This document shows positions 41,825 through 42,356 of a stretch of DNA of 64,000 nt, one piece after another. The first letter of the stretch is position 1. Each line of letters begins with the position of its first letter. Source of the stretch: Escherichia coli (GTDB taxonomy: Bacteria > Pseudomonadota > Gammaproteobacteria > Enterobacterales > Enterobacteriaceae); assembly GCF_003018115.1 (NCBI RefSeq), contig NZ_CP027457.1; one strand, 5' to 3'. The notes below the pieces were generated by a model. The model was not told where the DNA came from. It saw nothing but the letters and a program-made list of their open reading frames with translations, and searched no databases. The translations under genes and the position numbers were made by a program.

Positions 41825-42356
41825 GGAAACTCCTTTTATTGGTGTTTGCTATTTGAATAAAAATACGCCAAACAGAGTGTTAACTGTGAATATGGAAAGA
41901 ATCGTTGTAAGTACCCCACTTAGGTGTCCCATTCTATTTTAGAGGTTCTCGTGCATATGGATTATGTTATCTGAAAGTTAACTTCCGCTTCCCGTTCACA
42001 GCGAACATTCATCTTTGTAAACCCGTATGATCCGTTTTTCAAGTGGCCATTCAGATACGGATTTTCACTTCCTTGACAGTGCATGACTATGCTGCATGAA
42101 ATCGCATGATCGATTGAGGATCGTCTTTGCTCAGATCCGCCAGAACTGGCGGGCTTTTGCTCATGTCATGCATGTGCATGAAAACCACTGCATAAAGCGG
42201 GCAGGCGTGGCGGGGATACGAGCGCGCTCTGATATGAAAATCTGAACAAAAAATTACAAAATGGTATCTTTTTGTTGCTATCATCATTTTTGATGGTAAC
42301 TTAACCTTTTCAGTTTCTATATTATAAAATTCTATCCAGAAGAAGGAATTTGTTTC

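Follow-up and report, generated by a model that had tools for sequence, protein, structure and literature searches.

The structured island upstream of a DUF262 gene in Escherichia coli W is very probably the outer flank of a P2/186-family cos site

Phages of the P2 family package their DNA from circular monomers (PMC2231350). In P2 and P4, the terminase cuts circular DNA at cos, which produces 19-nt 5' cohesive ends, and the DNA is threaded into the capsid (PMC2231350). A 55-bp core together with 19-nt ends is described for the cos sites of this family in PMC2231350, PMC9594776 and PMC5694545, where the passages on the core cite Ziermann and Calendar 1990. Longer flanks around the core raise the transduction of cosmids (PMC9594776). 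On the phage maps of P2 and 186, cos is found in the same gap, with the A/tin-old (or tum/orf97) region on one side and the portal gene on the other. Foreign genes are known to be acquired in the stretch from cosL to Q, according to the passage of PMC5694545 that cites Dodd and Egan 1996. Defence-gene hotspots adjacent to cos have been described for P2 and P4 (Rousset et al. 2022, PMC9122126), and in P4 the variable defence cargo starts immediately past the core (PMC9122126).

The locus described here lies in a window of 64,000 nucleotides, the whole stretch of E. coli DNA that was analysed. An earlier note on this DNA had singled out a GC-richer element at 42060-42170, about 200 bp upstream of a DUF262 gene, and proposed a short sRNA, an attenuator of the defence gene or a terminator of an upstream transcript. 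Homology to phage sequences makes it very probable that 42060-42170 instead forms the outer flank of a cos site, which belongs to a P2/186-family (Fels-2-like) prophage in E. coli W. The element lies just outside the 55-bp core and, in virion DNA, would come to lie at the right end. It is an element of a known kind at a known place, beside a known defence-gene hotspot. The main import is a correction: an apparent riboregulator of a defence gene would be a phage packaging site.

A megablast search of complete E. coli genomes returned E. coli W as a 100% identical match for the intergenic region, and the surrounding 40 kb, as annotated in RefSeq, are those of a P2/186-family prophage. The nearest phage records are Fels-2-like phages of Klebsiella, Salmonella and Escherichia. 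The genes and the one intergenic hairpin that are relevant to the locus are the following, with gene identities from the RefSeq annotation unless a Pfam match is given:

Prophage start, in order: integrase, KAP NTPase, CI, CII, Fil remnant
32917-34368 (L001 11088-12539), minus strand: KAP-family P-loop NTPase gene, between integrase and CI repressor
38297-40711: replication endonuclease gpA, preceded by a Dam methylase (DNA adenine methylase) gene
40864-41296: 62-aa ORF and DinI-like gene, the latter at 41063-41296 (Pfam DinI, E = 6.6e-23)
41489-41824, minus strand: orphan 111-aa gene, cargo in the slot left of cos
42357-44138, plus strand: DUF262/GmrSD_N gene (PF03235, E = 1.6e-22), cargo between cos and the portal gene
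44142-44163: perfect hairpin AACGCCTGC-TCAG-GCAGGCGTT, between the DUF262 and portal genes, which converge and lie 40 bp apart
44179-45207, minus strand: portal protein gene, homologue of P2 Q and 186 W
45204-46970, minus strand: gene of the terminase ATPase (large) subunit, followed by capsid, lysis and tail genes
49025-49675 (L001 27196-27846), plus strand: gene of the terminase endonuclease (small, gpM-like) subunit

The order of gpA, DinI-like gene, orphan gene, cos, DUF262 gene, portal gene and terminase ATPase gene puts the site at the position of a P2-family cos site. Several other features of the prophage deserve mention. The place of the KAP-family NTPase gene (32917-34368) looks like a further site of accessory, possibly defence, cargo. 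A LexA-box-like palindrome, TACTGTAAATATAAACAGT, and a second partial one lie at 40795-40830, just 5' of the 62-aa ORF and the DinI-like gene, an arrangement that resembles the SOS-controlled p95/tum operon annotated in 186. A Pfam search with the orphan 111-aa protein (41489-41824) gave no match, and it may be a defence or exclusion gene of an uncharacterised kind. The tail-fibre region contains an inserted IS3-family transposase at 57803-58980 (L001 35974-37151), which adjoins a recombinase-family (invertase-like) gene. As a result of this insertion the prophage may be defective, and this copy of cos is possibly unused. Elsewhere in the window, and unrelated to the cos element, Rfam places naRNA4 (REP-derived) at 2431-2508 on the minus strand and a tRNA-Met at 24804-24879 on the plus strand.

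The identification rests foremost on alignment. The right and left ends of the linear 186, P4 and P2 records were joined and aligned against the window, and all three align to 42075-42235 without gaps. Over the 55-bp core, identity in the ungapped alignment is 43/55 for 186, 42/55 for P4 and 41/55 for P2. The core contains a putative 19-nt 5' cohesive end with the G-rich sequence typical of the P2 family, GGCG(A/T)GGCGGGG..., which agrees with the end of 186 (GGCGTGGCGGGGAAAGCAT) at 15/19 positions, the first 13 nt being identical, and with those of P2 and P4 at 14/19 each. The predicted cuts fall at 42203/42204 on the top strand and after 42222 on the bottom strand. In its last six bases (ATACGAG) this end is unlike that of 186, which closes with AAAGCAT, and those of P2 and P4, so that the exact ends are predictions from homology only. 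Among related phages the site behaves as a discrete unit, in which a conserved cos region is flanked by variable DNA. This unit spans about 42080-42230. From left to right it comprises three distal TGCATG repeats, a pair of GATC repeats, a GC-rich dyad, two proximal TGCA repeats and the core. The TGCAT repeats follow one another at spacings of 13, 10 and 72 bp, and 28 bp separate the last repeat from the nick. The parts of the unit and the adjoining DNA are:

42080-42108: three distal TGCATG/GCATG repeats (GCAT from 42081, 42094 and 42104), outer edge of the cos unit
42108-42123: GATC repeat pair (GATCG ... GGATCG), Dam sites, specific to this cos subtype
42137-42152: dyad or stem-loop CCGCCAG-AA-CTGGCGG, the hairpin of the earlier note, centred 59 bp left of the top-strand nick
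42155-42158, plus strand: TTTT run after the dyad, terminator-like in appearance (terminator scan)
42167-42180: proximal TGCA(T) repeats, ATGCATGTGCATG; the 55-bp core begins with the last of them
42175-42229: 55-bp cos core of the P2 family (ungapped alignment), the part with the highest information content
42185-42200, minus strand: weak stem-loop within the core; its TTTT run is on the minus strand (terminator scan; P2/P4/186 alignment)
42204-42222: predicted 19-nt 5' cohesive end GGCGTGGCGGGGATACGAG, by homology to the annotated ends of 186, P2 and P4
42231-42356, plus strand: AT-rich DNA 5' of the DUF262 gene, inherited with its cassette; all three prophages with the cassette agree here at 100% identity

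The individual motifs that the earlier note had listed hold up well. The TTGACA hexamer is present at 42073-42078, and TGCATG/GCATG repeats occur at 42080, 42093, 42104, 42169 and 42175. There are 5 copies of GCATG in 42060-42206 (147 bp), compared to 0.12 expected from the window-wide frequency. The hairpin CCGCCAG-AA-CTGGCGG (CCGCCAGAACTGGCGG) at 42137-42152 is followed by CTTTTG, and the island is indeed GC-richer, with a GC content of 0.46-0.52 over 42050-42250 compared to 0.25-0.40 in its flanks. The features alone do not establish an RNA element. The 111 nt at issue fold no better as RNA than shuffled sequence (z = -0.29), and 181 nt folded as DNA reach a z of -1.67; neither value is significant. 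The motifs are real by virtue of their conservation, since they stand in register across 117 distinct related sequences. What does not survive is the placement of the element in the leader of the DUF262 gene: it belongs to the packaging unit at 42080-42230, and the cos site had been missed.

The family-wide survey was made by scanning IMG/VR with the cohesive-end pattern GCGGGCNGGCGNGGCGGGG. The scan returned 120 stretches, and these together with the window, P2 and P4 give 117 distinct regions. Phage 186 does not match the scan pattern; it stands outside the 117 and was compared separately. Three of the 117 (L072, L081 and L087) are GC-rich chance matches and not cos sites; they were kept in the family counts and filtered out only for the comparison of upstream terminators. 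When anchored on the cohesive end, all 117 regions are in register, and columns 42079-42231 contain all of the information content. GCAT occupies columns 42081, 42094, 42104 and 42176 in 66%, 81%, 84% and 98% of the regions, respectively, and TGCAT begins at column 42175 in 95% of family members. The distal TGCATG repeats occur in 186, P4 and P2 too. The GATC repeats, at columns 42108 and 42119, are found in 43-44% of family members. These Dam sites lie in a short direct repeat in a prophage that encodes its own Dam methylase, and methylation might influence the binding of terminase. Four IMG/VR sequences (L019, L028, L044 and L046) carry three AGGATC repeats in place of the TGCATG repeats. 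In this subfamily the CCAG-NN-CTGG dyad stands about 12 bp further left and the cohesive end reads GGGGTCCCGAT or GGGGTAACGAT, which may reflect a different terminase specificity.

The dyad is widely conserved. At least 6 of its 9 Watson-Crick positions are kept in 77/117 distinct cos regions, and the mean number of pairs is 6.06, compared to 2.0-2.7 after displacement of the partner by 1-3 columns. Within the dyad, sequence is conserved in the inner arms (CGCCAG/CTGGCG), the outer pairs may be either G-C or C-G, and there is free variation at the four central bases. Folding energies of the dyad are -11.8 kcal/mol in the window, -11.4 in 186 and -17.8 in P4. Alignment and folding of P2 revealed no such hairpin at this position, so that packaging cannot depend on the dyad in every phage. 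In 46/77 dyad-bearing sequences there is a T-run after the dyad; it is absent in the other 31/77, and 186 and P4 lack it as well. The existence of 31 dyad-bearing sequences without a T-run indicates that the dyad is conserved for a reason that needs no U-tract. The centre of the dyad always stands 59 bp from the nick, without indels. Together, the dyads that lack a T-run and the invariant distance point to a function of the dyad in the packaging complex as double-stranded DNA. A second structure, the stem-loop at 42185-42200 inside the core, is weak in the window; its P2 counterpart is CCGCCCCGTGAAGCGGGCGG, and the structure is much stronger in P2 and P4. This stem-loop and the hairpin at 42137-42152 form a pair of convergent terminator-like structures just left of the nick.

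The hairpin followed by TTTT could nevertheless be foremost a Rho-independent terminator, in which case 42137-42158 would stop rightward SOS/DinI or left-cargo transcripts before cos, and its position within cos would be incidental. The terminator scan does match the site, with a stem of 7 pairs (5 of them G-C), a loop of 4 and a CTTTTG sequence after it, and the RNA stem-loop has a folding energy of -11.8 kcal/mol. The same scan reports 2 terminator-like sites in 1.5 kb compared to 0.8 +/- 0.9 in shuffles, so that the hairpin alone is not above chance, and the T-run is short, with four T and then a G. Conservation cuts both ways. Stem and T-run are kept together in the cos subtype of the window (46/117), whatever the orientation of the upstream cargo, and 186-type sequences, which have no T-run, carry the annotated terminator t95b about 120 bp further left, which hints at complementary solutions. 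Outside this subtype the U-tract is not retained with the stem, and its absence from 31/77 dyad-bearing sequences argues for another reason for the conservation of the dyad, as does a distance to the nick that never varies by indel and so reflects a constraint at the level of DNA. Also, the nearest plus-strand gene upstream in the window ends at 41296, with a minus-strand gene between it and the hairpin. If terminators to the left compensated for a missing T-run, they should be commoner where it is missing; an upstream terminator-like site is found in 8/26 sequences without the T-run and in 7/49 with it, a weak trend. A terminator for an upstream transcript has some probability in the subtype of the window. 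Termination is unlikely to be the primary function, but it may be a secondary role that does not exclude packaging.

The readings that tie the island to an RNA or a protein product fare much worse. A leader or attenuator that controls the DUF262 defence gene is suggested by the hairpin lying on the same strand, about 200 bp upstream of the start codon. A leader should be inherited with its gene and lie inside its transcription unit, and neither is found. DNA matching the 41830-42356 query, which contains the hairpin, occurs in 1255/5426 complete E. coli genomes, whatever lies downstream (megablast), and the DUF262 cassette occurs in only 17. The conserved DNA of the cassette begins just past the core, at about 42230, with a promoter-like site of its own at 42301-42330 (promoter scan). 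The predicted cut at 42203/42204 falls between the hairpin and the gene, which would place them at opposite genome ends in virion DNA, and the z of -0.29 gives no signal of alternative structures. Control of the defence gene by this element is accordingly very improbable. A short sRNA that starts from a promoter at 42073 and ends at the hairpin has in its favour a perfect -35 hexamer (TTGACA), a TGAAAT 18 bp downstream and a transcript of about 50 nt to the hairpin and TTTT. This promoter is not conserved. TTGACA lies outside the conserved block, and the aligned position is a gap in UMNK88, CATGTC in GCM74-1-1 and TTGGCT or TTGGCA in related viral contigs; the promoter scan reports nothing at the site. 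The supposed transcript consists of TGCATG and GATC repeats that are conserved as DNA motifs at fixed columns, and its fold is no better than that of shuffled sequence, as given above. An Rfam search of 41800-42400 at E <= 10 returned six chance-level matches (E = 3.8-9.1), far below the gathering score, and at the gathering threshold the whole window yields only a tRNA and naRNA4, both elsewhere. We give an sRNA hardly any credence. A small protein would have to be encoded by the 66-aa minus-strand ORF at 42087-42287 or the 49-aa plus-strand ORF at 42096-42245. Both ORFs exist, and a hypothetical protein is annotated over the homologous DNA in some genomes. Both also span the predicted cos cut site and the junction of conserved and variable DNA at about 42230, their ends derive from cargo-specific DNA that differs in every prophage, and conservation tracks fixed DNA motifs and not a reading frame. 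The chance of a coding function is close to nil, in agreement with the earlier view of the 66-aa ORF as non-coding.

The cos site itself can be described as a conserved island of about 150 bp, with a cargo slot on either side that is exchanged independently of the other. Homology to other prophages stops at about 42227-42246, just past the core. In two other prophages with the cassette, those of UMNK88 and GCM74-1-1, the DNA is identical from 42204 rightwards, including the AT-rich region upstream of the DUF262 gene. Their cos flank at 42080-42203 is a diverged copy, and left of 42080 the cargo is unrelated; the genes in this left slot include one for a DUF6694 lipoprotein. At the other end of the right-hand slot, the hairpin at 44142-44163 is probably a bidirectional terminator equivalent to tQ of P2 and tW of 186, which are annotated at the matching position, and would form the right edge of the slot. 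The identity of the element as cos explains why a GC-richer, motif-dense island of about 150 bp lies between unrelated AT-rich cargo regions and why this island is common to about a quarter of complete E. coli genomes. It also explains the turnover of GmrSD/DUF262-type defence genes beside the island (cf. Rousset et al. 2022).

The manner in which the flank would work can be outlined by analogy with the family. The phage terminase would bind circular DNA at cos and introduce staggered nicks, and the linear genome would be packed into the capsid. The flank would act as double-stranded DNA in this process. Its repeats and dyad, which stand at fixed distances from the nick, most likely provide a binding array for the small terminase subunit, perhaps joined by a host DNA-bending factor. 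The gene product of 49025-49675 is the likely reader of the flank. In the subtype with a T-run, the dyad may have the secondary role of stopping rightward transcription from the left cargo slot before it reaches cos. For the unit and its sub-motifs, identity and position are observed, as are boundaries and conservation; the part of each sub-motif in protein binding is what we infer from them. A more far-reaching proposal is tentative, and we consider it rather doubtful as a whole. According to this proposal, 42080-42174 would be a little-characterised part of the packaging signal in which the TGCAT repeats are specificity determinants for the small terminase subunit, apparently replaced by AGGATC in the variant subfamily, and in which the dyad is a separate module (a bend or host-factor site), co-opted in one subtype as a transcriptional insulator between cargo hotspots. 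What is mildly new is the map, across the family, of the flank beyond the 55-bp core, including the AGGATC subfamily. A 2026 survey of P2-like viruses contains nothing on cos, and a review on small terminases gave matches to phage P22 only. An in-register map of 117 cos regions could be of use to those who design P2/P4 cosmids or study the specificity of terminase.

The closest known counterpart is the cos site of 186. It lies in the same place, between the A/tum region and the portal gene, and it shares the architecture of the flank without indels: three TGCATG repeats, a dyad CGCCAG-NN-CTGGCG, two TGCA repeats and the core. The flanks of 186 and the window are identical at 52/100 positions, and the dyad of 186 reads CGCCAGAGCTGGCG. 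The two GATC repeats and the T-run after the dyad belong to the subtype of the window and are absent from 186. The gap between cos and the portal gene is about 190 bp in 186, whereas it holds the defence gene in the window. The hairpin at 42137-42152 was also considered as the counterpart of t95b, the separate terminator of 186, and rejected, since t95b maps to the equivalent of 42015-42042 in the window, outside the conserved block.

P4, a satellite without a terminase of its own, carries TGCATG repeats at the same columns and a dyad, CCGCGCC-ATTCCC-GGCGCGG, at the same distance from the nick as that of the window. The P4 dyad has another sequence and no T-run, and the flank is identical at 46/100 positions. 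In phage lambda, cosN and cosB combine a nicking site with a one-sided array of short repeats and a bend/dyad element that position terminase. The likeness to the cos flank of the window would be one of function only, as there is no sequence similarity, the terminase belongs to another family, and phages of the P2 family start packaging from circular monomers (PMC2231350). In the hotspot of Rousset et al., variable cargo lies on both sides of a conserved cos, from gpA to gpQ; in the window, this cargo is the GmrSD/DUF262 gene and the orphan 111-aa gene. The locus is one instance of that hotspot, and nothing essential in it is different.
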